The position numbers and the translations under genes were made by a program. From Patescibacteria group bacterium (GTDB taxonomy: Bacteria; Patescibacteriota; Microgenomatia; UBA10105; UBA927): 64,000 nucleotides of DNA. A model generated the notes under the pieces. The model was given only the letters and a program-made list of their open reading frames with translations. It had not been told where the DNA came from and ran no database searches. Of this stretch, positions 17,745 to 64,000 are shown one piece after another (position 1 is the stretch's first letter; every line of letters starts with the position of its first letter). The stretch is taken from contig JBMOPU010000012.1 in NCBI GenBank assembly GCA_049322955.1, positions 543,199 through 607,198 on the forward strand, written 5' to 3'.

Positions 17745-18989
17745 TTACTGTGTAACCCACTTTTCCAGCGCCCGTTGAAGCTCGGGGCTGTCTTTGGTTT
17801 CTGAAAGGGGAGTGCCCGTAAGTGTTGCCTTCAATGATTGGACGATCGCCCGTGCTCCTGCGGGAGTGCCGTCGGGGTGCCCGTGAATGCCGCCGCCGAA
17901 GTTCATGAGTAAATCCTTGCCGAGGATGGATACAAGATCGGGGATGTGTCCGGGGTGCAGTCCGCCCGATGCGGTGGGGAGGGTAGTTTTCAAGCCATAC
18001 CATTCACTTCTTAGGAAGTTATTGATCGTCACCACTTCTTCTTTCCCGCCTTCCATTTTGCCGACGACCGTTCCGGTGTGGAACGAGTCGATACCCGCAA
18101 GGCGCGCCAGTTTGGCGATGACGAGCATCGAGATACCGAATATTTTGGATCGGGTAAATGCCGCGTGCATGGCGCGGTGCCCATGGATCATCAGTCCGTA
18201 GTTCCTATTCCGAATTCCCTGGGTCGCGGCAAAGCCCGCAGTCAGGACATCGATCATCAGACAGTTAGCGCCACTGTCGCGCACGTAGTTGGCGCGTTTC
18301 ATCATTTCTTCGTAACTTGCCGTGATGTTAAACGCATGGATTTTTGCCTTGCCGATTTCAAGGTAATTCTTTTCTTTCATCCTGCGGGTCACTTCATCCA
18401 CCCGGGTATAGAAATTATCAAACGTCATGTTGGCGAGGTTTTCGTCATCTTTGACGAGGTTGACCCCTCCATCCCACACCTCCATACACGCTTCGGCGTG
18501 GCGGACGCTGGTGAGTCCCAGCTTGGGCTTGATGATCGAGCCGGTGAGCGGGCCATCGTGTACTCCCGTGAGGTTGCGGATTCCTTCGATGCCCAATGCA
18601 GGACCGGGGAACGATTTGACGAATATCTCGGGAAATTCCAAATCTTCAAGCCGGAGCCCCACGATTTCTTTAAGCCCGAAGACGTTTCCCGTGATAGAAG
18701 AGAGGAGTTGGGGGATACTTCCCGCCTCGAATAAATCGAGTGGATACGCGACGACAATTCTTCCCGTCTTTTCATCCATTTCGATGACTTTGGCATGCAA
18801 TTTGTCCCAGATTTCCTTTTCTTCAAGCCCGATGTCCGTCCACGTGCCGACGGAGGATTCCGCCGCCACTCCACCTGCCGTTTTATCAAACGGTTCGCCT
18901 TCCACTTTGAGGGTAAAGGTAGCCAAAATATGCTTGGTCTTGTCGACTTTTTCGTTGAGTGCCAGATAATGGATGTACCGATTTGCCAT
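17745..18989 (-). CDS. rbcL: Ribulose-1,5-bisphosphate carboxylase/oxygenase large subunit, form III-like (archaeal/CPR type)
   Basis: Active-site motifs IKPKLGLTS, GGVNLVKDDEN (carbamylated Lys), HRAMHAAFTR, GLHPGHIP ... NFGGGIHGHPDG; 414 aa. Immediately downstream of an e2b2-family isomerase. Confidence 0.88.
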   Translation of the reverse strand: MANRYIHYLALNEKVDKTKHILATFTLKVEGEPFDKTAGGVAAESSVGTWTDIGLEEKEIWDKLHAKVIEMDEKTGRIVVAYPLDLFEAGSIPQLLSSITGNVFGLKEIVGLRLEDLEFPEIFVKSFPGPALGIEGIRNLTGVHDGPLTGSIIKPKLGLTSVRHAEACMEVWDGGVNLVKDDENLANMTFDNFYTRVDEVTRRMKEKNYLEIGKAKIHAFNITASYEEMMKRANYVRDSGANCLMIDVLTAGFAATQGIRNRNYGLMIHGHRAMHAAFTRSKIFGISMLVIAKLARLAGIDSFHTGTVVGKMEGGKEEVVTINNFLRSEWYGLKTTLPTASGGLHPGHIPDLVSILGKDLLMNFGGGIHGHPDGTPAGARAIVQSLKATLTGTPLSETKDSPELQRALEKWVTQ

Positions 18990-36513: not shown

Positions 36514-36598
36514 GCCGAGGTGGCGGAATGGCAGACGCTCAGGTCTCAAAAACCTGTGAGCATAATAGCTCGTGGAGGTTCGACTCCTCTCCTCGGCA
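36514..36598 (+). tRNA. tRNA-Leu (anticodon CAA), class II with long variable arm
   Basis: Acceptor stem GCCGAGG/CCTCGGC, anticodon stem CAGGT/ACCTG with loop CUCAAAA (U33-CAA-A37), long variable arm, T-arm GGAGG-TTCGACT-CCTCT, discriminator A. CCA is not encoded. Confidence 0.85.
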
Positions 36599-46173: not shown

Positions 46174-46893
46174 ATGAGCGGACATTCCAAATGGAGTAAG
46201 GTAAAACATCAGAAAGCGACGACGGATGCCGTCAAAAGCCGGGCATTTACCAAAGCATCACGTGCCATCACCGTCGCTGTTCGCGAGGGAGGAAACATCG
46301 CCGATCCCGATAAGAACTTTCACCTGCGACTTGCCATTGAACTTGCCCGTTCAGTGAACATGCCCAAAGATACCATCGAGCGCGCGATAGAAAAAGGTGT
46401 CGGCGGCGGGGGAGTTGCCTTGGAAAATTTGGTGTACGAAGGGTACGGTCCGGGAGGAGTGGCGTATGTCGTGGAAGCGACCACCGATAATCACCAGCGG
46501 ACGGGCTCGGAGGTGAAGCATCAGTTTGATCGGTTTGGCGGATCGCTTGCCACCCCCGGCGCGGTGTTGTATCAGTTCAAGAAAAGCGGCGTCATATTAG
46601 TGGCAAAAGCAGGAAACACCTTCGATGCGTTATTTGATAGGGCGGTTGCCGCGGGCGCCGATGATCTCATCGAAAAAGACGATGTGTATGAAATATATAC
46701 GTCGGGCACGATGCTGGATAAGGTGAAAAAGCAATTGGAATCGGAAGGCATTGTCATAGAAACCGCTGAGTTTATCATGCGATCTACCGTCCAGGTTTCG
46801 GTCACCGATGACCTTCGGGAGAAAAATGATGCGCTTATGGACGCGCTTGAATCGCTTGATGACGTGTCAAACGTGTATAGCACCATGGAGTAA
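46174..46893 (+). CDS. yebC: YebC/PmpR-family probable transcriptional regulator
   Basis: MSGHSKWSKVKHQKA..., conserved YEGYGPGGVAYVVEATTDN. ATG at 46174; the upstream 27 codons of the ORF-track version overlap the divergent TPR gene. Confidence 0.9.
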   Translation: MSGHSKWSKVKHQKATTDAVKSRAFTKASRAITVAVREGGNIADPDKNFHLRLAIELARSVNMPKDTIERAIEKGVGGGGVALENLVYEGYGPGGVAYVVEATTDNHQRTGSEVKHQFDRFGGSLATPGAVLYQFKKSGVILVAKAGNTFDALFDRAVAAGADDLIEKDDVYEIYTSGTMLDKVKKQLESEGIVIETAEFIMRSTVQVSVTDDLREKNDALMDALESLDDVSNVYSTME

Positions 46894-47744
46894 TGATGAA
46901 ACGGATTATTGCACCTCTTATCGATACGGTAACCAAACGCTATAAACGGTGGGAGCGAACCCAACCGTTTAGTAAACGTCAGCAGTTTGTCGGTATTACG
47001 GGCATTCTGACGATTCTTTTGATGTTGACGCAACTGATGCCGTTGGATTTTCGTTATCCCATGGTAGCGGCGCTGTTTGTCGTCAGTTATTTGCTTTGCG
47101 CGTTTGCGCTTCGCGATGACTTGCGGGGTGCCGAGTGGGGAACACTGCTTATTCTTCCCTCGTTTTTTACCGCCGCTGTGGCGGTGTTTTACTTTTTGCT
47201 TCCTACCCGCTGGTTGACCAGACTCCCGATTGCCGTGTTATACGCGATAGGGATGTACGCGTTGTTACTTACCGAAAATATCTACAATGTTGCGGCGGCA
47301 AGAACTATCGCATTGCTTCGTGCGGCACACTCGGTGGGATTTCTGCTCACGTTGGCAACCTATTTTCTTTTGGTACAAACCGTATTGGCGTATCGGTTTT
47401 ACGGTTGGACAAACGCACTGTTTATCGGTCTTATTACCTATCCGTTGACCTTACAAATTCTCTGGGCGATAAATCTTGAACCGGCGGTAGGGAAGCGGGT
47501 GAGGGAACTTACCCGTATCATTACCCTTGTTCTGTTTGAACTTGCCTGGATATGTTCGTTACTTCCCGTACGGACGACATTACTGGCGCTTTTTTTGACG
47601 GCCTGTTTTTACGGACTGGCGGGGATGGGGCAACAGTATTTGGCGGATCGACTCTACAAGCGCACCGTGTGGGAGTTTTTTGGGGTGGTCGCCATAGTCG
47701 GTCTTATTTTGCTTGTCACGTTAAATTGGCGGACCGCGTTGTAA
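46893..47744 (+). CDS. Hypothetical polytopic membrane protein
   Basis: Seven to eight TM helices; start overlaps the yebC stop. Confidence 0.4.
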   Translation: MMKRIIAPLIDTVTKRYKRWERTQPFSKRQQFVGITGILTILLMLTQLMPLDFRYPMVAALFVVSYLLCAFALRDDLRGAEWGTLLILPSFFTAAVAVFYFLLPTRWLTRLPIAVLYAIGMYALLLTENIYNVAAARTIALLRAAHSVGFLLTLATYFLLVQTVLAYRFYGWTNALFIGLITYPLTLQILWAINLEPAVGKRVRELTRIITLVLFELAWICSLLPVRTTLLALFLTACFYGLAGMGQQYLADRLYKRTVWEFFGVVAIVGLILLVTLNWRTAL

Positions 47745-47819
47745 AAAATAATATTGCGCGTTTTTCATCATCGCACATGGCCTCATCCAGGCACGCCGGC
47801 GGGAGAGTGGGAGAGTGAT

Positions 47820-48460
47820 ATAGTCTGATATAGTTGATATAGTTTGATACGGGTAGGGAAAACTATAGGGCATAATGTGGATAATTAATTTCACGGGGTA
47901 TACATACTGTTTTCACGATCCTCTAATAGCCTCGACTTAGCCTCAACAAGCTGAAAAACTATAGGGTAGAGTTGTGCCTCTGCTCCGGGTATAGCGAGGC
48001 ACATTGCACGCTCCCTTCCTCTCCCTTGAGTACACAAAGTGTGCGATAAAACATCGATTTGGATTGTTGTAACGCTCTAAATACGACTATTTACTGTTCT
48101 TCAGGAGGAGCGAAAGTAGCCTCGAAAATATTAGTTTAGCGCGTATTGATGGGCTAAATAAAACCGAAAACGTGAAGTGTTAGCAGGAGTCACCCATATA
48201 GCGCTAAACGATATGTTTTTATCCGTCTGCGCGCGAGAGCATGGGAATTGTAAGGCTAAAAATACATAATCGGAGCTTCAATACGCTCTATTCTATCAAG
48301 GCCGAGACGTCATTTTATTCGAGTATTTAGCCTCAAAAAATACCATTTGGAGCGTATTAATGCGCTAAATTGCGACATCTCTTGATTATCGAATGCATCC
48401 GGAGTAGGGAGTTTAGCCTCGAAATATCGCATTTGGAGCGTATTAATGCGCTAAATAATT
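47820..48460. repeat. Non-coding repeat cluster: three direct copies of a ~45-nt unit (TTTAGCCTC - N - GGAGCGTATTAATGCGCTAAAT), an inverted core copy, tandem GATATAGTT, and duplicated AAAACTATAGGG
   Basis: Unit copies at 48117-48159 (divergent), 48326-48370 and 48412-48456 (41 of 45 nt identical). Inverted core GGAGCTTCAATACGCTC at 48272-48288. GATATAGTT x2 at about 47828-47845. AAAACTATAGGG at 47859 and 47955. Perfect GTGCCTC/GAGGCAC hairpin at 47974-48002. Perfect DnaA-box 9-mer TGTGGATAA at 47876-47884. Confidence 0.8.
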
Positions 48461-49012
48461 TTCACAATAAAAAACCCGAATGACCGTTTTTTGCCTGTAT
48501 ATTCGTAGTACAATCGCAAAGAAATGTTGATCGATCGCAGAGCATGGAATAGCCACGATTGCATGCGGAAGAGAGGTGTCTATGGCTCCTATCTCCCTCA
48601 ATGCCTTTCGCGCATAATCATCCGACGTCTCCGGGCGCATTTTGGGCGGTTTCCCTGTCAGGGGGAAGAATTGCTTACATAGTCGCACAATAATACTTTT
48701 ACGACGTCACGAAAAAGAGCCTGCCTGGAGAAGACCCCGACTCGCGCCTATTGTGTCCGCAATGTTTTTCCGTTTGGCGTTGCTATTTATGTCCGTACAT
48801 TTCCGAAAATTTTTCCTATATATTCCCCGGTTTGTCCGCCGCCGTTTTATGCGTTTGTTTTTGCTCGCGAGATTTTCTTCAACCGCTGGATATGCGCGGT
48901 TTTCCCGTCAAAACGCGCCAACTAGTTTGTTGTCAAATGGATGAGATGAACGCTCATACGTCTTTGATAAATCAGGGGCCTTCTAGGTCATTACAGGGGC
49001 TCAAATTTGAAG

Positions 49013-49711: not shown

Positions 49712-49772
49712 GGAACAATTCTACCATATTGACATGACACTGATGTCGTACAATTATAGATTGTAACGACGT

Positions 49773-50726
49773 ATGGATATCGATAAGCTTATTAAAGATT
49801 TTCTGGAATATTTAGAAATTGAGCGAAATGTTTCGCGACTTACCATCCGCAACTATTCGCACTATTTACAGCGGTTTTTTGATTTTTTGGCGGGCCCTCG
49901 GGACCCCTCCTCCCCTCCCCTGTCCGTGAAAATCGTGAAAATTTCAGAGATTAATCCCGAGAATATCCGACAGTACCGCCTGTATTTGTCACGTTTTGTC
50001 GATGAAAAAGGCATGTCGCTAAAGCGGGTGACGCAAAATTACCATTTGATTGCCTTACGAAGTTTCCTCAAGTATTTGGCCAAACGGGACATCATGACGG
50101 TTTCCCCCGACAAAATTGATCTGCCGAAAGCCGAAAGCCGATCCATCAAATTTTTAGAGCGCAACGATGTTGAGCGGCTTATGAACATGCCGGATATGAA
50201 CACCAAGGAAGGCGTCCGGGACAAAGCTATCCTGGAAGTGCTGTTTTCGACGGGGCTTCGCGTATCCGAACTCGTGAGTTTGAATCGTGATCAGATAAAC
50301 CTTGACCGGCGTGAATTTAGCGTCATCGGAAAAGGCCGGCGAACCCGCATCGTATTTTTGTCCGAACGTGCCGCCGAATGGCTCAGAAAATATCTCGCGA
50401 CCCGCGAAGATGACCTTCGGCCCGTCTTTATCCGCTATAGCGGCAAAACACCCGATGAACACGATACGACCGGCGAATCGGTGCGGCTCACCGCACGATC
50501 CGTTCAACGCAGTGTGGAAAAATATGTCAAAAAAGCAAAACTTATGGTTAAAATTACGCCGCATGGGCTTCGGCACACGTTCGCAACCGATCTTCTGGGA
50601 AACGGTGCGGATCTTCGCGCGATCCAGGAGTTGTTGGGACATAAAAACGTGTCCACCACCCAAATCTATACGCACATCACCAATCCGCAACTCAAGGAAA
50701 TACACGATAAATTTCATAGCAAATGA
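49773..50726 (+). CDS. Tyrosine site-specific recombinase XerC/XerD family
   Basis: N-terminal core-binding domain (FLEYLEIERNVSRLTIRNYSHYLQRF). Catalytic R (LRVSE), HGLRHTFAT, LGHKNVSTTQIYTHI (nucleophilic Tyr); 317 aa. Confidence 0.88.
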   Translation: MDIDKLIKDFLEYLEIERNVSRLTIRNYSHYLQRFFDFLAGPRDPSSPPLSVKIVKISEINPENIRQYRLYLSRFVDEKGMSLKRVTQNYHLIALRSFLKYLAKRDIMTVSPDKIDLPKAESRSIKFLERNDVERLMNMPDMNTKEGVRDKAILEVLFSTGLRVSELVSLNRDQINLDRREFSVIGKGRRTRIVFLSERAAEWLRKYLATREDDLRPVFIRYSGKTPDEHDTTGESVRLTARSVQRSVEKYVKKAKLMVKITPHGLRHTFATDLLGNGADLRAIQELLGHKNVSTTQIYTHITNPQLKEIHDKFHSK

Positions 50727-51760
50727 CGAATCAAACGAGTCTTTCCGGACTTCGGGTGACGGTGTTATACAACAAGCCTGCCGCACGGTTTGCCGCGGAT
50801 GCCACGCATATCGTTGCGGAGGAAGATACCGAGGAATCTGCCCGGGAAATCGCCGAAGCCCTGAAGAGCAAAGGCATGGTTCCCTCACTTGCGCCTATCA
50901 CGGAACATGACAGCCAAAAAGTGATTGAAAATCTCCCCGATGATTTAGTGTTCAATCTTATCGAATGGACCGGCATTGACACGCCGTATGCGATACAAGC
51001 ATATGAGTACATGCATGCAAAAGGGCTTTCCTATACCGGGGCCGCACTTGATACCTATTTGCTTTCCTGCGACAAGTCCGTAATGAAAGCGCGTCTTGAG
51101 TCAGCACATCTTCCGACCGCACGGTGGCAACTATTCAAAACGGGAGACGAAACCGTGCGGGATGATTTTCACTATCCGTTAATCGTCAAGGTGAGCAGTG
51201 AACACTCGAGCGTAGGGCTTACCAAGGAAGCCATCGTGCAGAACGCGGAAGAAGCAAAAAAAATGGTTAATAAACGACTTATCGAGTATCGGCAACCGGT
51301 GTATATCGAAGAGTTTTTGACGGGTCGTGAATTTCAGGTGACGCTACTTGAGCGCGAAAGCGGACTTTCGGTATTACCGATTTCCGAGGTGCAATACACC
51401 AAAAAGACCGATGTTCCTTTTTTGACTTACAACAGCCGATGGGATGCGACACACCATGACTATAACAATTCGCTCGTATTGCTTGCGCATTTAACCGCGT
51501 CACTTGAGAAGAAAATTCATGACATGAGTGTTACGGCGTTTCGTACCTTCGGGTACCGTGACTACGCACGGTTTGATATCCGGTGTCAGGATGAGTCTCC
51601 CATGTTTTTGGAGATAAATTCCAATCCGGGATTAAGCGATGATGAAGAGTACGGTATGACCGTATCCTACAAAGCCGTCGGTATGACGTTTGCCGATGTG
51701 GTTGAGGAAATCGTCAGAAGCGCGCTTCGGCGAAAAGAAAGAACCGGGGTTACGGGATAA
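50723..51760 (+). CDS. ATP-grasp ligase of the D-alanine-D-alanine ligase family
   Basis: Ddl-like N-domain and an ATP-grasp core (PLIVKVSSEHSSVG, EEFLTGREFQVTLLE, FLEINSNPGL). The ATG overlaps the xer stop (ATGA). Confidence 0.6.
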   Translation: MTNQTSLSGLRVTVLYNKPAARFAADATHIVAEEDTEESAREIAEALKSKGMVPSLAPITEHDSQKVIENLPDDLVFNLIEWTGIDTPYAIQAYEYMHAKGLSYTGAALDTYLLSCDKSVMKARLESAHLPTARWQLFKTGDETVRDDFHYPLIVKVSSEHSSVGLTKEAIVQNAEEAKKMVNKRLIEYRQPVYIEEFLTGREFQVTLLERESGLSVLPISEVQYTKKTDVPFLTYNSRWDATHHDYNNSLVLLAHLTASLEKKIHDMSVTAFRTFGYRDYARFDIRCQDESPMFLEINSNPGLSDDEEYGMTVSYKAVGMTFADVVEEIVRSALRRKERTGVTG

Positions 51761-52343
51761 ATACCCGCGCGGTTTCGGTACGGAAATACGGCAGAGACTC
51801 CGGATCGCGGGCCACCACCATCATGAGTTGCGGTTGCCATTTTCTGATAAGGCGGAATTTTTTGCTGTGTTTGGTGAGTCTTCGGCGCTTGTAATCAAAG
51901 TCCCACCATCGGGAACGGAAATCCGACCAGTCATATGATTTCCGCTTACCCGTCGCGCTATCCAAAAGCACAATTCGTGACTTACTCGAAAGATATGATG
52001 CGACCATAGCCCAGTGCCCGCTTTCTTCCTGCGGCTTATATTTGTCATCGAGATCATACAGATAGGAAACGATAACCGCGCGTTGTTCTTTCGGACGATA
52101 CTTTAACGCGCTCTGCAGGTGATGCAGTGTTGCGTATTCCATGACCATCACGGATAATCCCAGCTTGTTTGCGGCTTCTATCATGTGCTTGGTTGAAGTA
52201 CCGTTTCTGCCCGTTTTACACAGTTCGATTAAGCGCTTCATGGATGCGCGAAGACCCAAATATTCCGCGACATGTTTCAGCGATACGGGACCGCACGTAA
52301 TGTCGTCGGGCTGTTGAATCGGTTTTATATTTTTTCTACCCAT
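51750..52343 (-). CDS. Papain-like cysteine peptidase, C39-like (Peptidase_C39_2 / BtrH-N-like), cytoplasmic
   Basis: Start set at MGRKNIKPIQQP. Candidate catalytic Cys in DDITCGPVSL and His in SGHWAMV. No signal peptide. Confidence 0.45.
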   Translation of the reverse strand: MGRKNIKPIQQPDDITCGPVSLKHVAEYLGLRASMKRLIELCKTGRNGTSTKHMIEAANKLGLSVMVMEYATLHHLQSALKYRPKEQRAVIVSYLYDLDDKYKPQEESGHWAMVASYLSSKSRIVLLDSATGKRKSYDWSDFRSRWWDFDYKRRRLTKHSKKFRLIRKWQPQLMMVVARDPESLPYFRTETARVFIP

Positions 52344-52518
52344 AGTAATTGATTTGTCGGCGTTGTTAAAAAACGAGAGAGGTCTTGCGGAGCGGAATCC
52401 TGCTCCGCAGGACGGTTGGAACAACCATTTTACCCCGCTGGGAAAATGCCATCAAGACCTATAGTTTGCTCTTCAGCGGGCTGAAGCTAAACCGTTTGAG
52501 CGGATAAGCTATCTGAAG

Positions 52519-53256
52519 CTACTGGATCTCGTAGCTGAGGCTCACGTTGACCGAAAGCTCCGAGGTGCCCGGTTCCACTTCTGTGGGGGCTCCTCCGCCG
52601 GACATCGGCAGAGCTTTTTCTGCGGTATCATACATCAACGGCCTTGGGTATGAACCGTTTCCTTCACTGTAATTGATGACTCTCCCGAGTTTAAAGCCGG
52701 CGGCACGGGCCGCGGCTTCCGCTTTTGCCTTTGCATCACTAACCGCCGCTTCTCGCGCCTGATTTTCCGCCTTTGTTTTATCATCGACGTCAAAACTCAC
52801 CCCTCCCACCTCGTTTGCTCCCTCGCGGGTCGCGCCGTCGATCACACTGTTTATTGAATCGATTTTTCTCACCTTCACCGAAAGCTGGGAGCTTGCCTGA
52901 TAGCCGGTAACCCGTTGGGTACCTGATGAATAATCATAAGTCGGCGAGATATGATAATAACTCGTTTTTATATCTTTGGCATCCACGCCGAGTTTTTTGA
53001 TTGCCGCACTTACGGCGTTCATCTTGGTATTTAACTCATCCTGCACTTTGGTGACTGACGAACCTTGTGCGGTGACGCCGAGCGATACGACGGCAACATC
53101 GGGAATGAGCGTTACTTTTCCCTCACCGCTGACGGTAAAGGTATCTGTTTTTGTCGTCGTTACGCTGTTAATCGAAAAAGGCAACGGTCCCGCGAGTTTC
53201 GTATAGGCAAACAGCATAATAAAGAAGAGTACGATTGCACCTGAAATATCTTTCAT
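52519..53256 (-). CDS. SIMPL-domain (DUF541, BP26/OMP28-like) protein, membrane-anchored
   Basis: Start at the ATG preceded by AAAGGAGGGAAT; it overlaps the folD stop (ATATGA). N-terminal TM helix, SIMPL-like beta-alpha core, Gly-rich segment SGGGAPTEVEPG. Confidence 0.6.
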   Translation of the reverse strand: MKDISGAIVLFFIMLFAYTKLAGPLPFSINSVTTTKTDTFTVSGEGKVTLIPDVAVVSLGVTAQGSSVTKVQDELNTKMNAVSAAIKKLGVDAKDIKTSYYHISPTYDYSSGTQRVTGYQASSQLSVKVRKIDSINSVIDGATREGANEVGGVSFDVDDKTKAENQAREAAVSDAKAKAEAAARAAGFKLGRVINYSEGNGSYPRPLMYDTAEKALPMSGGGAPTEVEPGTSELSVNVSLSYEIQ

Positions 53257-54122
53257 ATATTCCCTCCTTTTTGTATAGTACATGCTTTGACAAGATTTTT
53301 CATGAGACAGGCGACATTAATAGGACCCACACCTCCCGGCGTCGGGGTATAGTATGACGCGACATCGGCTATCGCCGCTTCGTCGTAATCACCGTTAAGC
53401 TTTCCTTCACTATCCCGCCATATGCCGACGCTGATAAGCGTCGCTCCTTGTCGGATCGCGGACGGGACGATGACATCCCGTTTTCCGACGCAGGAAATAA
53501 TGATATCGGAAGCGGCGGTGACGGCGGAAGGATTCGGAGTTTGTGAATGGATTATAGACGTCGCACAATTATGCTTTGCGAAATAACGGGAGATAGGTGC
53601 TCCCGCAGTCTCCCCCCTGCCGATAATGGCTATTTTTTGGGAGCGTAGCCATTGCCACAACGAATCTTCGGTATGAGGTGCACTCGCACCCTCCTGCGGA
53701 AGAGACCGCAGTATCTCCCCTATCGCAAGCGCGACGGGTACTTCAAACGGACTATCGGAAAGAAATCCGTCAACATCTTTTTCTTTACGGATTTTTTGTA
53801 AGACGTCGGCAACCCCTCCCACTTCCTCAGGGATCGGTCGTTGCACGATAAGGCCGTGGATCAAGTGATCCTTATTAAACCGATTGATCAGATTGTAGAG
53901 TCCGCCTGAAGTGAGTGACGGCGGTTGGTGTTCGAGAACGAGTCGTGCCCCTATTCGTTCTGCGGCTTTTTGTTTCTGCTTGATGTAGGCGAGACTTGCC
54001 GGATTGTCTCCGATCAAGATGACCGCAAGGGTAGGATCGATCCCCTGTTCCTTCAGTGACGCGACATCATCCGAAAGTCGTGTTAAGAGGGATTCAGCGA
54101 TAAATTTTCCGTCGATACGCAT
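53253..54122 (-). CDS. folD: Bifunctional 5,10-methylene-tetrahydrofolate dehydrogenase / methenyl-THF cyclohydrolase
   Basis: MRIDGKFIAESL start aligns with canonical FolD N-termini. Conserved YIKQKQKAAERIG, PEEV ... KDVDG, Rossmann GRGETAGAPI. Confidence 0.9.
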   Translation of the reverse strand: MRIDGKFIAESLLTRLSDDVASLKEQGIDPTLAVILIGDNPASLAYIKQKQKAAERIGARLVLEHQPPSLTSGGLYNLINRFNKDHLIHGLIVQRPIPEEVGGVADVLQKIRKEKDVDGFLSDSPFEVPVALAIGEILRSLPQEGASAPHTEDSLWQWLRSQKIAIIGRGETAGAPISRYFAKHNCATSIIHSQTPNPSAVTAASDIIISCVGKRDVIVPSAIRQGATLISVGIWRDSEGKLNGDYDEAAIADVASYYTPTPGGVGPINVACLMKNLVKACTIQKGGNI

Positions 54123-55005
54123 AGATGCGTTCTGCAACGGCTGACCAATTAAGCTCAGGCAATACCATGGCAGTAATGATCAGTATACCGCCGATTATGG
54201 CAGGAAGCGAGGGGGTGGTTTTAAACAAGACCGAGTCGAATAACAACACAAACACGATTTCACTTAACATGACAAGGCTTCCCAATTGCGCGTCAAGTTT
54301 GCGAAAGCCGTGGATAACGAGCAGAGCCGTCACGATGAAAATAACGCCCGTAAGTAAGCTCGCGCCCTGGGTGAGCGATACCTCGGCAAGCGGCCACCGT
54401 TCGCCGAGGAAAAATGATATCGCCATAAACAGCGGCACGGCAAGCGCATTATCCAAAAACGTCAATTGGGTGGCGGGGTACTCGGTGATTTTCTTGGAAG
54501 AAATACCCCAGAATGACGAAGATACCCCCGAAAGAAACGCCAGGAAAACAAAAAGCGGGCCGTGCAGTGACACTCCCACCCCATACACAAACAACAATCC
54601 GATAAGGGCAAGACCCAGCGAACACCAGCGAAGGAGGGTGGTTTTTTCACCGAACATGAGTGCCCCCAATACAAATCCCGCAACCGTCATCCCGCCGTAG
54701 AATATAAAATAGGACAGGCTCACGGGTAACACATTCACCGTTACGAAAAACAAAAGAAATGACGCACTGCCGGCGAGCATCCGCAGGGTGATCCATAATC
54801 GGGAAGATTTCGCGACCGGCTTCCAGGATTTATAACTCCACAGCATCAGCAGTGATGCAAGCAAATACTTGGTCCAGCTTTGGTAAAAAAGCGGCAGGCT
54901 ATAGCCGATGTATTTTGAGAGGAATCCGATGGTGGCGTAAAGAAACGTGGCACCGATCAGACTGGTCATGCCGGAAAGGTGGTTCTGGGTGATAGTTCTT
55001 TTCAT
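54094..55005 (-). CDS. EamA/DMT-superfamily transporter
   Basis: Ten TM helices in two EamA repeats. 3' end overlaps the folD start by 29 nt. Confidence 0.7.
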   Translation of the reverse strand: MKRTITQNHLSGMTSLIGATFLYATIGFLSKYIGYSLPLFYQSWTKYLLASLLMLWSYKSWKPVAKSSRLWITLRMLAGSASFLLFFVTVNVLPVSLSYFIFYGGMTVAGFVLGALMFGEKTTLLRWCSLGLALIGLLFVYGVGVSLHGPLFVFLAFLSGVSSSFWGISSKKITEYPATQLTFLDNALAVPLFMAISFFLGERWPLAEVSLTQGASLLTGVIFIVTALLVIHGFRKLDAQLGSLVMLSEIVFVLLFDSVLFKTTPSLPAIIGGILIITAMVLPELNWSAVAERIYAYRRKIYR

Positions 55006-55032
55006 GACCGTTAGTATAACAGTTTCATACTG

Positions 55033-55063
55033 TTGACAGATATATCCCGCTTCCCTGTATAGT
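55033..55063 (+). promoter_or_regulatory. Candidate sigma70-type promoter (perfect -35 TTGACA, 19-nt spacer, TATAGT) upstream of the second SIMPL gene
   Basis: Hexamers read directly from the sequence. AAGGAG RBS at 55070-55075, 7 nt before the ATG at 55083. Confidence 0.4.
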
Positions 55064-55082
55064 AGAGATAAGGAGTTTTTTT

Positions 55083-55826
55083 ATGGAAAACAAATCAACC
55101 AGTGTCGCGATTATTGTCAGTTCCCTACTTTTTGTCACGCTTATCGGTATCGGTGGTATGTTCCTTCCTTCATGGGGCAAATTTGAGCTTACGCCGACAA
55201 AGACCGTGACGGTTGTCGGCGAAGCGAAATCTCAGGAAAAAAGTCAGATTGCGATATTTTCCGCGGGGGTAAATGCCTTTAACGATGACAAGAATACGGC
55301 AGTCAATGAGGTGAATAAAAAAGTCGAAGCGATCATTACCGCCGTCAAAGAATTCGGAGTCCCCGCTTCCGACATCAAGACACAGAGCCTCAACATCTAT
55401 CAGAACCAGGAACAATATTATGATGCCGACGGGCGTCAGCGGTATCGAGCGGGACAGTGGAATGTAAGCAACACCGTGGAAATAAAACTCAAGGATGTGG
55501 ATCGTGCGGGTACGCTTGCGGGGGTGTTGACCAAGACCGGTGCCAATAACGTGTACGGACCGAACTTTACCTTCGATGATACCAGCGAACAGGCAACGGC
55601 GCTTCTCGATGCCGCATACAAGAATGCGGAAGCCAAAGCGATGAAGGTCGCCCAGAGTACGGGGAAGAAGCTTGGTAGTGTGGTCAGTGTTTCTGAGGCA
55701 GGTGCCGCGTCGCAAGTGATGCCGCTGTATCGCATGGAAGGCGGCGGTGGCGGCGGCGGTGGGGCCGTCGAACCGGGAAGCGGTACGGTAAGTAAAAGCG
55801 TGATCGTCACTTTCGAACTTAAATAA
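55083..55826 (+). CDS. SIMPL-domain (DUF541) protein, second paralogue, with C-terminal poly-Gly tract
   Basis: Same architecture as 52519..53256 (TM anchor plus SIMPL core). Gly8 run (MEGGGGGGGGAVEPGSG) encoded by a GGC/GGT repeat at 55741-55768. Confidence 0.6.
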   Translation: MENKSTSVAIIVSSLLFVTLIGIGGMFLPSWGKFELTPTKTVTVVGEAKSQEKSQIAIFSAGVNAFNDDKNTAVNEVNKKVEAIITAVKEFGVPASDIKTQSLNIYQNQEQYYDADGRQRYRAGQWNVSNTVEIKLKDVDRAGTLAGVLTKTGANNVYGPNFTFDDTSEQATALLDAAYKNAEAKAMKVAQSTGKKLGSVVSVSEAGAASQVMPLYRMEGGGGGGGGAVEPGSGTVSKSVIVTFELK

Positions 55827-55847
55827 AGCGCGCTATACTGGCACGCA

Positions 55848-56429
55848 ATGTCACAACGCATTGAGGCGAGCCCGTTGTATCAGGTATTTCTTGCTCCGCC
55901 AAAAGAACACCATCGTGTGGAATTAATCGGGTGGCGGAGTAAAGTCATCCCCTTTTCCCGTCCGACCCGCAGGCTTGGCGATCGCGGTTGGATTCTCCTG
56001 ACGGGTTGCTTTGACGGGAAAGCGCTTTCCGAAGGACATCTTTCCCTTTTTCAGGCATTGGCGCGTATAGCCCCCCTCATTGTTGCGGTGGAGTCGGATG
56101 AAACGCTGTGGTGGAATAAGGGAATGTTCCGCCCGTATCTGCATCAGGAAGATCGTGTCGCACGGGTGGCGCGTCGACCGGAAGTAGAAGGCGTCATTCC
56201 CTTTGCGGATACCGTTTTTTACGGTGGGCGCTATCCGATAACAAAGAGTCGTGGGCGTTTTGTGGAGCGTTTTACGGTGCTTCACCCGCCGATGGTACCC
56301 ATCGCATCGGAAGATCCGTTGAATGCCTACCCGTTTGGAATGAACGCCGATGCGAAAAATATCGGGGCGACCCGTTTGGTCTATGAGTATTACCCTACCC
56401 CATCCACGTCACAACGGCTGGGATACTGA
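55848..56429 (+). CDS. Cytidylyltransferase-like (HxGH-type nucleotidyltransferase fold) domain protein with variant SxGH motif
   Basis: ILLTGCFDGKALSEGHLSLFQALARIAPLIVAVESDE resembles G-FD-H-GH ... liVgv-sDe of CTP-dependent cytidylyltransferases. The first His is replaced by Ser. Confidence 0.35.
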   Translation: MSQRIEASPLYQVFLAPPKEHHRVELIGWRSKVIPFSRPTRRLGDRGWILLTGCFDGKALSEGHLSLFQALARIAPLIVAVESDETLWWNKGMFRPYLHQEDRVARVARRPEVEGVIPFADTVFYGGRYPITKSRGRFVERFTVLHPPMVPIASEDPLNAYPFGMNADAKNIGATRLVYEYYPTPSTSQRLGY

Positions 56430-56431
56430 GG

Positions 56432-58954
56432 TTATTTCGTAAGGCATGTCGCCGCGGCAATCGTGTCGGATTTATCGGCAAACCGCATCAGTATAACCCC
56501 GCTGGTTGCGCGTGACAGTTGCGGAATGGATTTCATAGGGAGCTTTACCACCTGGCCTTTGGTGGAGGTCAGAATGACCTCTTCGCAATCCGCGGGAACG
56601 AGTTGGCTCACCGCGATTTTCCCCGTTTTGTCCTTGATTTCCGCGACTTTTACTCCCTGTCCTCCGCGTTTCTGCTTGGGGAATCCGGATACAGCGGTCT
56701 TTTTCCCCAATCCCTTTTCCATGACGGTTAAAAAGTCCGCTTTTTTGGTTTCATCGTTAATGACTTCCATGGCGACGACGTAGTCGCCCGGTTTGGCGAG
56801 AATTCCCCGTACGCCCATGGTGTCGCGTCCCGTATGGCGGACTTCACTTTCACTGAAACGAATGGATTTTCCTTCATGAGTAACCAGTAACACGTCATCT
56901 TCGCCGCTTGTCAGCTTGGCCCAAATAAGCTCATCTCCCGCTTCAAGCTTGATGGCTAAGAGTCCGTTCCTGCGGATATTTTCGTATTCGGAAAGCTTGG
57001 TCTTTTTGACGACGCCTTTTTTGGTCGCCATCAAAATATAGTTAATGCCTTTTTCCTTCTGTTCCGTCCGCTTCAGGCTATAGGTAAGCATGGACGTTAC
57101 CTTTTCACTGCTTTCGATGTTAATAAGGTTCACGACCGCCTGTCCTTTGGATTGTCGGCTGGCCTCGGGAATATCCCAGACGCGTACCTGATATACCTTG
57201 CCTTTTTCGGTGAAAAAGAGCATGTTATCGTGTGTTTGGGCTGATACGAGTCGGTCGATGGCGTCTTCTTCTTTGGTGGTCATCCCGATGACTCCTTTGC
57301 CGCCCCGCTCCTGGAGTTTGAAGGTGGTGCGTGGCACGCGTTTGATGTAGCCGGTTTCGGTCATCGTAATGATGGTTTCCTCATTGGCGATGAGTTGTTC
57401 GTCGGAGAGTTCGCCTACTTTGCTCTTATAGACGCGGGTTTTTCTGTTGTCGCCGTATTTTTCCTTAAGCTTGGTGAGCTCTTCTTTAATGACCTTCAGT
57501 ACTTTTTCCGGGTGGGCAAGCAAATCTTCAAGATACGCGATCGTTTCCCGGATCATGGCAAGTTCGTCCTCGATCTTCTGGCGTTCCAATGCGGCGAGTT
57601 TCCGTAACTGCATGTCAAGGATTGCGGTGGCCTGGATTTCTGAAAGTTTAAAGCGTGCCATGAGTTTTGCCTTGGCGTCGTCGGCATCCTTTGCCTTTTT
57701 GATAATCGCGATGACTTCATCGATATGATCGACCGCAATTTTGAGTCCCTCAAGGATATGCTCACGCGCTTTCGCTTCTTTAAGTTCAAACTCGCTTCGG
57801 CGATAAATGACGTCATGACGGTGCTTCAGATACTCTTCGAGAATCTCGCGAAGGGTAAGCGTCCTCGGGGTGCCGTCCACCAGTGCCACCACGTTCATCG
57901 GGAAGGTCGATTGCAGTTCGGTATATTTATACAGATTATTGAGGACCTTATTGGGCTGTGCGTCGCGTTTGAGTTCGACGACCACCCGAATACCGCGGCG
58001 GTCGGATTCATCACGAAGGTCTGAAATACCTTCGAGACGCTTGTCTTTGACCAAATCTGCAATTTTGGCGACTAAATTGGCTTTGTTCACCTGGTAAGGA
58101 AGTTCGGTGATGGCAATCATGCTTTTCCCGTTGCCGATTTCTTCAATTTCGGCTTTGCCTCGCATGACGATTTTGCCTTTGCCGGTGGAGTATGCGTTTC
58201 TGATTTCGTTAATGTCGTAGATGGCTCCGGCGGTCGGAAAATCCGGTCCTTGGACGAAGTTCATGAGGTCCTCGAGGGTGACGTCAAAGGTCATGCCGAA
58301 TTTTTTGGATTCCCCTTCCGCGGTGACTGTCGTGGTTGCCTTCTTATCTATGGTTGCCTTGCTGATTAAGAAAATGATGGCATCCACAAGCTCGGTAAGA
58401 TTGTGGGGCGGAATCTTCGTGGCCATACCGACGGCGATACCCTCACTTCCCATAAGAAGCAGGTTCGGGAGTTTGGCGGGAAGATACACCGGTTCCGGGA
58501 TCGAGCCGTCAAAGTTCGGAATGAAATCAACGGTTTCTTTCTCGATATCCAAAAGCATCTCATCGGCGATAGAATCCAGGCGGCATTCCGTGTACCGCAT
58601 GGCGGCGGCAGGGTCGCCGTCAATGGAACCGAAGTTTCCCTGTCCGTCCACCAAGGTATAGCGCATGGAAAAATCCTGCGCCAACCGGACGAGCGCCTCA
58701 TAGACGGACGAATCTCCGTGCGGGTGATATTTACCCAGCACATCTCCCACCACGGTCGCTGACTTTTTGTACTTACTGCTGTGGTGAAGACCCGCCTGAT
58801 GCATGGCATACAGAATTCTCCGGTGCACCGGCTTTAATCCGTCACGCACATCGGGAAGCGCACGGGCGACGATAACGCTCATCGCATAGTCCATATAGGA
58901 CTTCTGCATTTCGGTGACTATTTCGCTGGGTTGGATTTTGCCGATGTGTGCCAT
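56432..58954 (-). CDS. gyrA: DNA gyrase subunit A
   Basis: N-terminal DNA breakage-reunion domain with active-site Tyr context (AAMRYTE), QRDR region ([15 protein letters not shown]), C-terminal beta-pinwheel repeats; 840 aa. Confidence 0.95.
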
Positions 58955-58957
58955 AGG

Positions 58958-59476
58958 TTACTTATGTGCGATACCGTCGGTTATTTCTTTTTGTGCGACT
59001 TCCTTGCCTTTCCATTCCTTGAGTTTCACCCATTTGCCGGGCTCGAGTTCTTTATAATGTTCAAAGAAATGTTTGATCTTCGCCTTTACGGGTTGGGGAA
59101 TATCGGAAACATCTTTCATCGTGCCGTAGAACGGATCGGATTTTTCCGAAGGAACCGCAACAACCTTTGCGTCCACGCCCGATTCATCTTCCATTTCAAG
59201 GAGTCCGATGGGGGTGACGTTGACCATGACGCCGGGGTGTAACGGCTGACTGCAAAGCACCATGACATCCACGGGGTCGCCGTCACCTGATTTTGTGTTC
59301 GGAACAAATCCGTAGTTGGCGGGGTACCCCATGGTGGTGCGGACAAATCGATCGACCATGATCACTTCCGCTTCCTTATCCATTTCATACTTCACCATGC
59401 ATCCTTCGGGGATTTCGATGATGACGTTAATGTCTTCGGGCGGGTTCTTTCCTGGTTTGATTGCTGATAGGTTCAT
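58958..59476 (-). CDS. ppa: Inorganic pyrophosphatase (family I)
   Basis: Family I motifs: DGDPVDVMVL, metal-binding Asp/Glu pattern; 172 aa. Confidence 0.92.
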   Translation of the reverse strand: MNLSAIKPGKNPPEDINVIIEIPEGCMVKYEMDKEAEVIMVDRFVRTTMGYPANYGFVPNTKSGDGDPVDVMVLCSQPLHPGVMVNVTPIGLLEMEDESGVDAKVVAVPSEKSDPFYGTMKDVSDIPQPVKAKIKHFFEHYKELEPGKWVKLKEWKGKEVAQKEITDGIAHK

Positions 59477-59497
59477 AATTCCTCCTTTTATAAAAAA

Positions 59498-61423
<1,926 letters not shown>

Positions 61424-61468
61424 CTACCTTCTCAAGAAAAAAGAGAGCGACTTACGGACGCTCAAAAA

Positions 61469-62197
61469 TCATTGTACCCGATCATATTTTGGTTGTCCAG
61501 CCAGTTGTTTGTCTTTTTTTGCGTCATCAGTGATAAGGGCATGTTCAAGTGCAAGAAGCGGATGAATGTTGCCGAGTATCCGTTGTTTTGCCTGCAGGAG
61601 TCGGTGGATCAGACGCGTCTTAAACAGCCTCATTTCCTGTAGCTTTCCTGTGGTATCGGTATCGCGAATCGACTCACCCAGCAACACCAATGCCGTATCA
61701 ATCCACATGAGTATTTCGTCTTTGGATTTGCCGACGGTCTCGCAAAAAGCGATACGCTCCCCTACCGGCGTCATCATAAGATTCGTCAAAAAATCCGTCG
61801 TTTTTTTCAGTACTTCCCCTTGAACAGTCATGCCCTTTTGAGTGACGGGTATTTTGACGCATCGCGATATGACGGTGGGAAGTAATGCCGCGTCGTTTGC
61901 GACGGCAAGAATGAGATTGGCATGTGCGGGAGGTTCCTCGAGAGTTTTTAACAACGCCTGCTGTGCTTCCTGGGTGAGTAATTCCGCCTGGGGAATAATC
62001 CCCGCCGACACGTTGCCGTGCGTCGGGCGAAGTGATAGCGCCTTAATAAACGCGCGAATTTCCGTTATCCCGATCGTCGGACCCGTCAGTTCCGGGGAAA
62101 TACAATCGAACTCATGAATTCCCCGCGCGGTCATTTGTCGGGCTATTTCTTCGGTGCGTGAAGAAAGATCCCCGCCGATGATAAGATACGTGTGCAT
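61469..62197 (-). CDS. holB: DNA polymerase III delta-prime-like clamp-loader subunit
   Basis: AAA+-like fold with sensor motifs and the LLKTLEEPP box typical of HolB/DnaX. Start set at MHTYLIIGG. Confidence 0.6.
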   Translation of the reverse strand: MHTYLIIGGDLSSRTEEIARQMTARGIHEFDCISPELTGPTIGITEIRAFIKALSLRPTHGNVSAGIIPQAELLTQEAQQALLKTLEEPPAHANLILAVANDAALLPTVISRCVKIPVTQKGMTVQGEVLKKTTDFLTNLMMTPVGERIAFCETVGKSKDEILMWIDTALVLLGESIRDTDTTGKLQEMRLFKTRLIHRLLQAKQRILGNIHPLLALEHALITDDAKKDKQLAGQPKYDRVQ

Positions 62198-62303
62198 AGA
62201 TTTTCGTCTTTGTACTATAGTACTTTGCTTTCCTCTTGCAAAGCCGTTTGTTATCACGAATAATGGATATACCGACGCCTGTTGGTGTTTTGTGTTTTAA
62301 AAA

Positions 62304-64000
62304 ATGCCTATGTCTGCCCAAGATATCGTTTCGATTCTTATAGCCGAACATAAATTATCCGCCGAGCAGGGGGATAAAATCCGTACGGAATCCCTTAATT
62401 CGGGTATTCCCATAGAAGATCTGTTGGTCGGCAAATATGCGATTTCCCATGATGATTATTCCCGCGCCAAAGCGGAGTCATTGGGTATCCCCTTCGTAAC
62501 GGTTTCGGGGCGTGCGATTTCTCCCGATGTTATCAACTTCATTCCCGAACCGGTCGCACGGCGATATACGCTGGTGCCGTTTCAGATAGATCCGGATGAG
62601 CAGGCGGCGCTTTCGGTTGCGATGGTTGATCCGCTGGATTTTCAGGTTGTCGAATTTTTGGAAAAGAAATCAGGGCATCCCATCCGTCCCCACATGGGGC
62701 TTCGGGATGATATATTGGCGGCTATCGATGAACTGTATGCCCAAAATCTGGGAGCTGACGTCACGGCGGCGCTCGAAGAATCCTCACCGGCGATAAAAAC
62801 GTATGAAGCGGGCCGACTTGGAGAAGTCATCCGTGAAGCTCCCATCGCACAAATCGTGTCGGCTATCCTTGAACAGGCCATCCGTATCAGAGCTTCCGAC
62901 GTGCATATCGAACCGCAAACCGCCGAAACGCGCGTCCGTTACCGTGTCGACGGTATTTTGCAGGAACGCTTGGTATTGCCGCGAAGATTGCAGGAAGCGG
63001 TTATTTCCCGTATCAAAATTCTTGCGGATTTAAAAATTGACGAAAAGCGTGTTCCGCAAGACGGACGGTTCAACTTCAAAATGGGAGAAAACGAGGTTGA
63101 CCTTCGTGTTTCCACGCTCCCGACCGTGCACGGAGAAAAGGTAGTCATGCGGTTACTCAAAAAATCGGGCGGTATTCCTACGCTGAACGAGTTGGGACTC
63201 CGGGGGTTGGCCCTCAAGCACTTGGAGGCTTCGATCAGAAGACCGCACGGCGTCATCCTGGTAACCGGTCCTACCGGGTCCGGTAAAACGACCACGCTGT
63301 ATTCCGTGCTTGCCATATTAAATAACGCAAAAGTAAATATTATGACCCTTGAGGATCCGGTCGAATACGAAATAAACGGGGTGAACCAGGTGCAAATTAA
63401 TCCTGCCGCCGGATTGACGTTTGCGACGGGTCTGCGGAGTTTCCTTCGTCAGGATCCCAACATTATTCTTGTGGGAGAAATTCGTGATCAGGAAACGGCG
63501 GAACTTGCCATCCAAGCGGCTCTTACGGGTCATTTGGTTTTTTCGACGTTACACACCAACAATGCGGCGGGTGCGATTCCGCGGTTGATTGACTTGGGAG
63601 CCGAACCTTTTCTTGTCGCCTCCGCACTCAATGCGGTTGTCGGGCAACGGATAGCCCGAAGGCTTTGTCCGACCTGCAAGGAAGAATATGTTCCCGAAGA
63701 ACCGGTGCTTGTTGACCTTCGGCGTGTTGTCGGTACGCTATGGCCCCAGGATAAGCCGATGGTGCTGTATCGCGGAAAAGGTACCGTTGACGGCAAGCCG
63801 TGTGAGAGTTGCGGCGGCTCCGGATACCTGGGCCGGCTCGGGGTGTTTGAAGTGTTTCCCATTACCGATGCCATCAGTAAGCTCACGCTCACAAGAGCTC
63901 CCATGAGCGATATCGAAAAACAGGCGATTTCGGAAGGGATGATCACCATGAAACAGGACGGGTACCTTAAAGCATTGGAAGGAGTGACGACGATCGAAGA
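62304..64000 (+). CDS. Type II secretion / type IV pilus assembly ATPase (GspE/PilB family); 3' end lies outside the window
   Basis: Not in the ORF track (no stop inside the window). Own translation shows an N1 domain, Walker A GPTGSGKTTT, Asp box, Walker B ILVGEIRD, His box (LTGHLVFSTLHTN), and the zinc motif CPTC ... CESCGGSG. Confidence 0.88.
   Translation, partial: MPMSAQDIVSILIAEHKLSAEQGDKIRTESLNSGIPIEDLLVGKYAISHDDYSRAKAESLGIPFVTVSGRAISPDVINFIPEPVARRYTLVPFQIDPDEQAALSVAMVDPLDFQVVEFLEKKSGHPIRPHMGLRDDILAAIDELYAQNLGADVTAALEESSPAIKTYEAGRLGEVIREAPIAQIVSAILEQAIRIRASDVHIEPQTAETRVRYRVDGILQERLVLPRRLQEAVISRIKILADLKIDEKRVPQDGRFNFKMGENEVDLRVSTLPTVHGEKVVMRLLKKSGGIPTLNELGLRGLALKHLEASIRRPHGVILVTGPTGSGKTTTLYSVLAILNNAKVNIMTLEDPVEYEINGVNQVQINPAAGLTFATGLRSFLRQDPNIILVGEIRDQETAELAIQAALTGHLVFSTLHTNNAAGAIPRLIDLGAEPFLVASALNAVVGQRIARRLCPTCKEEYVPEEPVLVDLRRVVGTLWPQDKPMVLYRGKGTVDGKPCESCGGSGYLGRLGVFEVFPITDAISKLTLTRAPMSDIEKQAISEGMITMKQDGYLKALEGVTTIE

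Follow-up and report, generated by a model that had tools for sequence, protein, structure and literature searches.

A conserved gene-free island next to a xer gene in a Microgenomates genome is probably a chromosomal dif region

What is a stretch of more than a kilobase without genes for in the genome of a bacterium of the Candidate Phyla Radiation (CPR)? The question is raised by 64,000 nucleotides of a Patescibacteria group bacterium (contig JBMOPU010000012.1 of assembly GCA_049322955.1, positions 543,199 to 607,198; hereafter the window), in which a sequence-only reading had picked out a 1.25-kb, AT-rich, repeat-filled gap with no credible open reading frame (ORF) beside a xerC/D-like gene. 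The gap exists as described: it is 1,268 bp long, has a GC content of 0.440 against 0.504 for the window, and is at least 99.8% identical in 10 independent assemblies of the same organism, none of which has a gene call inside it. A Pfam search of its small ORFs returned no match, and reading stop codons in alternative ways, a check for a hidden gene that had been proposed, gave no ORF spanning 47745-49012. We think it likely that this island is the dif region of the chromosome and that a 24-bp inverted repeat within it, here called E2, serves the adjacent Xer recombinase as its dif site (Table 1). The recombinase gene thus proved to be the right lead, and the repeats listed in the sequence-only reading are real, but E2 itself and the connection to dimer resolution had been missed.

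That the island does something is indicated by its conservation. We gathered the loci of relatives through homologues of the LigT-like protein encoded at its right-hand edge and aligned the gap across 19 species. Relatives whose LigT-like protein is 45-74% identical to that of the window share its synteny (tgt, yebC and DUF5656 on one side; xer and ddl on the other) and have a gene-free gap of ~1.1-1.3 kb whose DNA can be aligned; the same housekeeping genes surround the island in 17/17 relatives with a LigT-like protein at least 45% identical. More distant loci have the LigT-like gene and no island. All the sampled Gottesmanbacteria relatives, which belong to the Microgenomates of the CPR, keep the whole island, and this conservation argues that it is functional. 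The conserved blocks of the alignment are 47805-47925, 48015-48090, the 45-nt repeat units discussed below, 48466-48483, 48682-48705 and 48945-49012. The stretches 48495-48660 and 48720-48940 are only weakly conserved, and the order of the short motifs varies from lineage to lineage.

E2 is the best conserved of these blocks, with a score of 0.97. It reads GTCGCACAA-TAATAC-TTTTACGAC, and its consensus right arm, TTTTGCGAC, matches GTCGCACAA as an inverted repeat at 8/9 positions; the arm motif can be written GTCGCAMAA. Every one of the 18 island-bearing loci of the relatives contains E2 (13 distinct exact copies), and these loci were found by protein, not by E2. There is one copy in the window and one in each relative locus, and a scan of metagenomes with the pattern GWCGYACAWTAATACTTTTRCGAC returned at least 120 distinct contigs with a single match each, including contigs of 906, 791, 721 and 506 kb. 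A search for a second full copy or a flanking duplicate found near-matches with up to 7 mismatches at about the level expected by chance. One such sequence, GTCGCACAATTATGCTTTGCGAAA (7 mismatches), lies inside folD at 53560-53583 on the + strand, ~4.9 kb to the right of E2, and is shared with a close relative, where it is on the - strand; it is probably a coincidence of the coding sequence.

E2 keeps company with xer over great evolutionary distances. The order DUF5656(+) - E2(+) - xer(+) was found in 42/42 loci holding both genes, in which DUF5656 is ~30-79% and Xer ~33-86% identical to the proteins of the window. Because this order is also found in loci without the LigT-like gene, with DUF5656 ~30% and Xer ~50-60% identical, E2 must be much older than the 45-nt units and tied to xer. 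The distance from E2 to xer ranges from 380 nt to more than 5 kb, sometimes with genes in between. Among NCBIfam models, the Xer of the window scores almost equally with XerC and XerD, under the cut-off in both cases, and barely passes the archaeal XerA model. These scores, taken with the near-identical arms of E2, suggest a system with a single recombinase. Some lineages (7 loci) have extra copies of the E2 arm 30-110 nt downstream of E2 (GTCGCAAAAGT ... TTGTTGCGACGTC ... GTCGCAAAAT), which may serve Xer as further binding sites or be left over from duplication of the site.

Evidence of a different kind comes from short words with a strong strand bias. These were sought in the window (1-47744 and 49800-64000) plus 10 kb added to it through gyrB, and then in 137 other loci oriented by E2, from which this organism was excluded. 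In this genome, the hexamers most skewed to the left of the island reverse to its right. AGGGGA has +:- counts of 19:0 on the left (47 kb) and 2:12 on the right (22 kb), and GGGGAG has counts of 29:5 and 2:10. From left to right, the + copies are last seen at 45475 and 46409, and the first - copies come at 49905-49916. The other 137 loci have the same pattern, with AGGGGA at 176:13 to the left of E2 and 33:217 to the right, and GGGGAG at 198:19 and 32:209 (Fisher p ~1e-70); these two words rank first among all hexamers tested de novo. The polarity flips within the 250-bp bins flanking E2, near which the words are enriched, and individual loci behave alike: 51/52 have a + majority to the left of E2 and 56/57 a - majority to the right. 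The polarity is independent of gene strand, since to the left of E2 the word occurs on the + and - strands at 330:27 in + strand genes and 29:3 in - strand genes, and to the right at 25:156 and 30:191. AGGGGAG, a heptamer, performs best, with 187 copies pointing toward E2 and 2 pointing away in 821 kb (~99% polar), and octamers such as TAGGGGAG reach 79:0. As the polar words point toward E2 from both sides, E2 is their convergence point, which fits dif and not an origin of replication. We consider AGGGGAG a candidate translocase guide word for Microgenomates, analogous to the FtsK orienting polar sequences (KOPS).

The marks of a dif site include inverted arms of ~9-11 bp around a 6-8 bp centre, an Xer-family recombinase and converging strand-polar words (KOPS, AIMS or ASPS), and the locus has all of these. 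If E2 is such a site, it would be the place where the Xer encoded 1 kb away resolves chromosome dimers, with two monomers bound to the 9-bp inverted arms and strand exchange taking place across the 6-bp centre TAATAC. AGGGGAG would steer a DNA translocase to E2 from both chromosome arms, as KOPS do for FtsK. Xer may control its own expression through a second E2-like site, or a half-site, on the xer promoter. The 45-nt units, which lie to the left of E2 along with a set of older motifs (TATAGG/GATATAG, TTTCACG, TGTGGATAA and CCCGAA), would be accessory sites for a DNA-binding protein, whose effect might be to modulate recombination or to stop replication forks on one side.

Several observations weigh against this assignment. 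In well-studied bacteria dif is located at the switch in GC skew, a usual trait that E2 does not have, although it is not universal and archaeal dif sites also depart from it. A skew analysis had been proposed as a check for an origin or terminus, and what it gave is a drop at E2 without an inversion: pooled GC skew steps from ~+0.11 on the left to +0.04 on the right, from where it falls to ~0. Its sign stays the same over 10 kb to the right in the pooled loci and over 23 kb in this genome, whose cumulative skew is still rising at least 23 kb past E2. Skew at third codon positions of + strand genes is likewise lower on the right (0.12/0.14 vs 0.16/0.23 on the left) but still positive. Chromosomal dif sites normally need no accessory DNA, and the ~1 kb of conserved motifs flanking E2 is not explained by a dif model alone; and there is no FtsK gene in the 64-kb window. 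The count of one E2 per locus comes from that window, from the loci of relatives and from metagenome contigs of up to 906 kb, and the metagenome scan picks up near-exact copies only, so that it under-samples variation in the site.

The two polarity signals thus say different things: by mutational skew, forks usually cross E2 from left to right, while by the polar word both arms point at E2. Possible explanations are that replication often ends to the right of dif, or that a one-sided fork barrier keeps the left arm fully polar. Putting all of this together would give an unusually elaborate Microgenomates dif island, in which a single-Xer site is bracketed by the 99%-polar AGGGGAG, xer is autoregulated, the one-sided array of units and motifs (DnaA box included) acts as a polar fork barrier or recombination filter, and dif is uncoupled from the termination predicted by skew. 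We put this fuller picture forward tentatively, and doubt that every part of it will hold.

What, then, are the 45-nt units? Their layout is AGCCTCRAAAAT, ~7 nt, and then TTTAGMGCR-TAWTAA-YGCKCTAAA. The sequence-only reading had listed three copies starting at 48117, 48326 and 48412; all three are real and the second and third share the 41/45 positions claimed for them, although the first starts at 48115. The "17-bp core" it described, GGAGCGTATTAATGCGCT, is actually 18 nt long. Its inverted core at 48272-48288 corresponds to a 14-nt, 86% complement at 48275-48288 but, because the core is palindromic, the copy in which it lies (48253-48295) reads equally well as inverted or as a diverged direct copy. 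Each genome has 2-6 units, always in one orientation and always to the left of E2. They were gained in the Gottesmanbacteria-related clade and are also present in loci without the LigT-like gene. No unit was found outside the island in the 64-kb window or in ~1.2 Mb of related loci, which answers a question about dispersal that had been raised earlier: the unit is locus-specific, not a dispersed element. To see what the palindromes are for, we counted stem pairs in 101 distinct unit copies from 40 loci and compared them by a permutation test. Pair 25-38 is Watson-Crick in 39 copies against 44 expected, pair 26-37 is G-C in 67, G.G in 18 and G.A in 10, and no compensatory change was detected in the stems of the 101 copies (permutation p 0.6-1.0). 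Because the palindrome positions vary arm by arm without compensation, the units are best read as double-stranded protein-binding sites; of the interpretations offered in the sequence-only reading, a cluster of binding sites is the one that fits best. The units are not acceptable promoters, lacking suitable -35/-10 spacing, and the LigT-like protein was rejected as their partner, since they occur where its gene is absent.

Binding sites need not mean recombination. E2 and the site at the xer promoter could be operators of a regulator of xer, and perhaps of a transcript we do not see, with the units belonging to another regulator. There is a promoter-like TTGACA-17-AATTAT at 49729-49757, before xer, and the second E2-like site overlaps it. 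The arm 9-mer GWCGYACAA lies at most 200 nt upstream of xer, on or beside the -35 or -10 element of its promoter, in 46/67 other loci, and the half-site GTCGCACAAT often runs directly into the TTGACA -35 hexamer in other lineages. Of 186 copies of the arm 9-mer on the + strand in 754 kb, 120 are E2 and the rest are nearly confined to the region upstream of xer. A DNA-binding protein of the YebC/PmpR family is encoded two genes upstream, in conserved synteny, which also favours this reading. However, operators give no reason for a word polar across whole chromosome arms to reverse exactly at E2 in ~98% of loci, the 9-6-9 layout with dif-like inner arms fits the core site of a tyrosine recombinase, and the gap between E2 and xer varies from 380 nt to over 5 kb and sometimes contains other genes. 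We therefore consider it unlikely that E2 is an operator and nothing else. The promoter site suggests that Xer acts on its own expression.

The same palindromes could be drawn as hairpins of one large structured non-coding RNA or of several small ones, and there are reasons to take this seriously: nucleotide conservation is far above that predicted from the divergence of the flanking proteins, the gap lies between convergent genes and so serves no flanking promoter, and positions 28-35 of the unit are mostly G.T and A.C, which are isosteric wobble pairs in RNA. Rfam, though, has no match for the island even at E values up to 10, and at gathering score the only hit in the whole window is the tRNA at 36514. 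For the 300-nt 5' domain RNAalifold found one covarying pair and an energy of -7.5 kcal/mol, and for 122 diverse sequences around E2 it found no pairs at all. Neither the unit stems nor E2 show compensatory change; in the E2 arm variants GACGCA, GTCGTA and TACGAC, pairing is simply lost. The order of short motifs differs between lineages, which is easy for DNA sites to tolerate and hard for a folded RNA, and an RNA leaves the flip of the polar word unexplained. Helices built by eye (GGGAGAG.../...CTCTCCC, GATATAGTTT/AAACTATAGG and, around E2, TTCTCCG/CGGAGAA) were not borne out. The structured RNA that the sequence-only reading had allowed for is accordingly improbable.

An origin of replication, whether oriC or a plasmid-type iteron origin, would account for the perfect, conserved DnaA-box 9-mer, for the AT-rich tandem GATATAGTT repeats beside it and for direct repeats in variable number. 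But polar words run away from an origin, and here they converge; the positive GC skew on the left means that forks run toward the island. The one perfect DnaA box is accompanied by weak ones only, no DnaA signature was found in the 64-kb window or in any of the 168 loci fetched, holB and pilus genes, rather than dnaA or dnaN, lie beyond gyrB, and there is no rep or par gene. We give this reading very little credence, and with it the earlier suggestions of a replication origin and an iteron locus.

The least probable reading of all is that an integrated mobile element left its scar or has its boundary here, or that the island is a cluster of dispersed repeats of the repetitive extragenic palindrome (REP) or miniature inverted-repeat transposable element (MITE) type, for although the repeats adjoin a tyrosine recombinase gene and the LigT-like gene was apparently inserted here in one clade, the housekeeping synteny is the same throughout (17/17 relatives), E2 keeps its position in at least 120 contigs of more distant lineages, the units occur nowhere else in the window or flanking DNA, E2 has no flanking duplicate, and the sequence is conserved, not variable, between species. 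Four narrower candidates were also discarded: an integron attC array (the recombinase reaches 110 bits with the integron integrase model, whose cut-off is 265, and the spaces between units are gene-free and conserved in close relatives), a CRISPR-like mini-array (there are no cas genes, and the "spacers" are conserved between species), type III toxin-antitoxin repeats (there are no toxin genes) and parS, of which TTTCACG resembles half but no full palindrome is present.

If E2 is a dif site, it is an unusual one, and it can be placed among known systems. Its closest parallel is xerS/difSL of streptococci and lactococci, a conserved module in which a single Xer-type gene lies beside its own site (PMC5357621). 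Both systems have a recombinase beside its site, imperfect inverted arms and skewed words oriented toward the site. They differ in detail: difSL, of 31 bp, has an 11-bp centre and directly adjoins xerS, whereas E2, of 24 bp (9-6-9), is found 0.4-5 kb upstream of xer; the lactococcal words are A-rich heptamers and the word here is G-rich; and no conserved accessory island has been described for difSL. The Xer of the window is not XerS, scoring 137 bits against a cut-off of 267.

Like XerCD/dif/FtsK/KOPS of E. coli (KOPS being GGGNAGGG), the locus has inverted arms, a 6-bp centre and a G-rich polar word that is enriched near the site and points to it. The inner arms of E. coli dif are CATAA-N6-TTATG, and E2, with CACAA-N6-TTTTG, differs from them by one base per arm. 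In E. coli two recombinases act on distinct arms and neither is encoded beside dif, whereas the near-identical arms here imply one; AGGGGAG is 99% skewed and occurs ~1 per 4.4 kb, compared with ~1 per 13 kb for KOPS; and, unlike in E. coli, GC skew is not inverted at the site. The overall layout of E. coli dif is 11-6-11 (PMC5357621).

Archaeal XerA/dif shares the single recombinase, and the Xer of the window does pass the XerA model, if barely. Archaeal dif was found from the skew inversion of short words, the archaeal short polarized sequences (ASPS), and is not necessarily opposite the origin (PMC5357621); the argument made here from AGGGGAG is of that kind. That system is independent of FtsK, its ASPS are tetramers (GTTG/GTTC), and its site is 11-6-11 rather than 9-6-9.

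Conserved DNA on one side of a core site, here a candidate accessory region that would bind protein, recalls the plasmid sites cer and psi, in which an Xer core is accompanied by ~180 bp of accessory sequence bound by ArgR/PepA or ArcA/PepA. Those sites are FtsK-independent; here the accessory DNA is 0.3-0.9 kb long and has other motifs, with no recognisable ArgR or PepA boxes, and polar words along the whole chromosome suggest the involvement of a translocase. Oriented arrays of protein-binding sites near the terminus also recall the Tus/Ter and RTP/Ter fork traps, and a one-sided fork barrier could explain why the skew is full to the left of the island and weak to the right. Unlike in the fork traps, however, the sites here are on one side only and within 400 bp, and we saw no similarity to Ter sites and no homologue of Tus or RTP.

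Our literature search for dif, Xer or KOPS in CPR/Patescibacteria found no description among the papers listed, and it found no account of how CPR bacteria resolve and segregate their chromosomes. The locus offers a testable system in a very small genome, consisting of a 24-bp site, a recombinase and a candidate guide word, AGGGGAG. E2 and the polar word can also be used to orient and check Microgenomates assemblies. Two features go beyond a textbook dif, namely the ~1 kb of accessory DNA with its units and the mismatch between polar words and GC skew, and both may shed light on how a minimal cell-cycle machinery links termination, dimer resolution and division.

Table 1. Features of the island and its right-hand neighbours (positions in the window)
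Feature	Position	Strand	Remarks
Gene-free island, probable dif region	47745-49012	.	1,268 bp; between convergent genes; gene-free in 10 assemblies; conserved
Three tandem GATATAGTY repeats	47816-47849	+	Kept in relatives
AAAACTATAGGG (TATAGG motif), copy 1	47859-47870	+	Seen in repeat search, alignment and distant lineages
TGTGGATAA, perfect DnaA-box 9-mer	47876-47884	+	Kept in 18/19 relatives
Two TTTCACG motifs, AATTTCACGG and TTTTCACGA	47887-47918	+	TTTCAC columns invariant in alignment of relatives
AAAACTATAGGG, copy 2	47955-47966	+	Seen in repeat search and alignment of relatives
Degenerate 45-nt unit copy	48038-48082	+	60% identical; inside strongly conserved block
45-nt unit, copy 1 (AGCCTCGAAAAT... 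TTTAGCGCG-TATTGA-TGGGCTAAA)	48115-48159	+	71% identical
Degenerate unit copy (AGGCTAAAA, then TGGAGC..GCTCTA)	48253-48295	+	Orientation ambiguous
45-nt unit, copy 2	48326-48370	+	91% (41/45) identical to copy 3
45-nt unit, copy 3	48412-48456	+	91% (41/45) identical to copy 2
Block CAATAAAAAACCCGAATG (CCCGAA motif)	48466-48483	+	Conservation 0.91
E2, candidate dif core site (GTCGCACAA-TAATAC-TTTTACGAC)	48682-48705	+	9-bp inverted arms, 6-bp centre
Conserved block E3 (..AATCAGGGGCCTTCTAGGTCATTACAGGGGCTCAAATTTGA..)	48945-49012	+	Ends at stop codon of LigT-like gene
LigT-like 2H-phosphoesterase gene	49013-49678/49711	-	Between island and xer in Gottesmanbacteria clade only
Second E2-like site (GTCGTACAAT-TATAGA-TTGTAACGAC)	49745-49770	+	Overlaps -10 region and 5' leader of xer
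Xer-family tyrosine recombinase gene	49773-50726	+	Pfam Phage_integrase and SAM-like N-terminal domain

Several short motifs of the island are older than the units. In most of the 12 distant lineages inspected, TATAGG/GATATAG, two TTTCACG motifs and CCCGAA are clustered to the left of E2, with the TTTTCACG pair again present there; TGTGGATAA is found to the left of E2 in several of the 12, and GATATAG and AACCCGAA also recur in distant lineages. The tandem repeat reported in the sequence-only reading is the GATATAGTY triplet, the AAAACTATAGGG duplication is where it had been placed (copies at 47859 and 47955), and the DnaA-box 9-mer is perfect, as stated; from its sequence, TGTGGATAA may bind DnaA. 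The GTGCCTC/GAGGCAC hairpin at 47974-48002 is likewise present but is not kept in relatives. A-rich forms of the CCCGAA motif (AAAACCGAAAA, AAAAAACCCGAATG and AATCCCGAAA) stand at several fixed places of the island in many lineages, at 48160-48170 and 48466-48483 in the window and ~70 nt downstream of E2 in 7 other loci. E3 reads GGCCTTCTAGGTCATTACAGGGGCT in the window, and a block of this kind stands between E2 and xer across Microgenomates. Where the LigT-like gene is lacking, its counterpart is GGCCTTAGAAT..GGTGAAGCC; in 5 other loci it takes the form GGCCTTAGAAT.GAT..GGTGAAGCC, ~250-330 nt downstream of E2.

The neighbouring genes on the right are those named in the sequence-only reading. 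On the left, the DUF5656 membrane protein gene (46893-47744, +) is convergent with the LigT-like gene; on the right, the LigT-like gene is followed by xer and ddl, which overlap by 4 nt. The LigT-like gene is missing between E2 and xer in most lineages outside the Gottesmanbacteria clade. Its product keeps the first H-x-T motif (SLHxTIQN), and the second is N-x-T (FANxTICRY), invariant in 16 homologues, so it is probably not a standard 2H enzyme. Several public records of metagenome-assembled genomes with a Gottesmanbacteria-type locus are titled "uncultured Gammaproteobacteria bacterium", which looks like a labelling error of third-party annotation (TPA). Elsewhere in the window, and with no bearing on the island, a homologue of the RuBisCO large subunit (414 aa) is encoded at 17745-18989 on the - strand; form II/III RuBisCO is common in CPR genomes.

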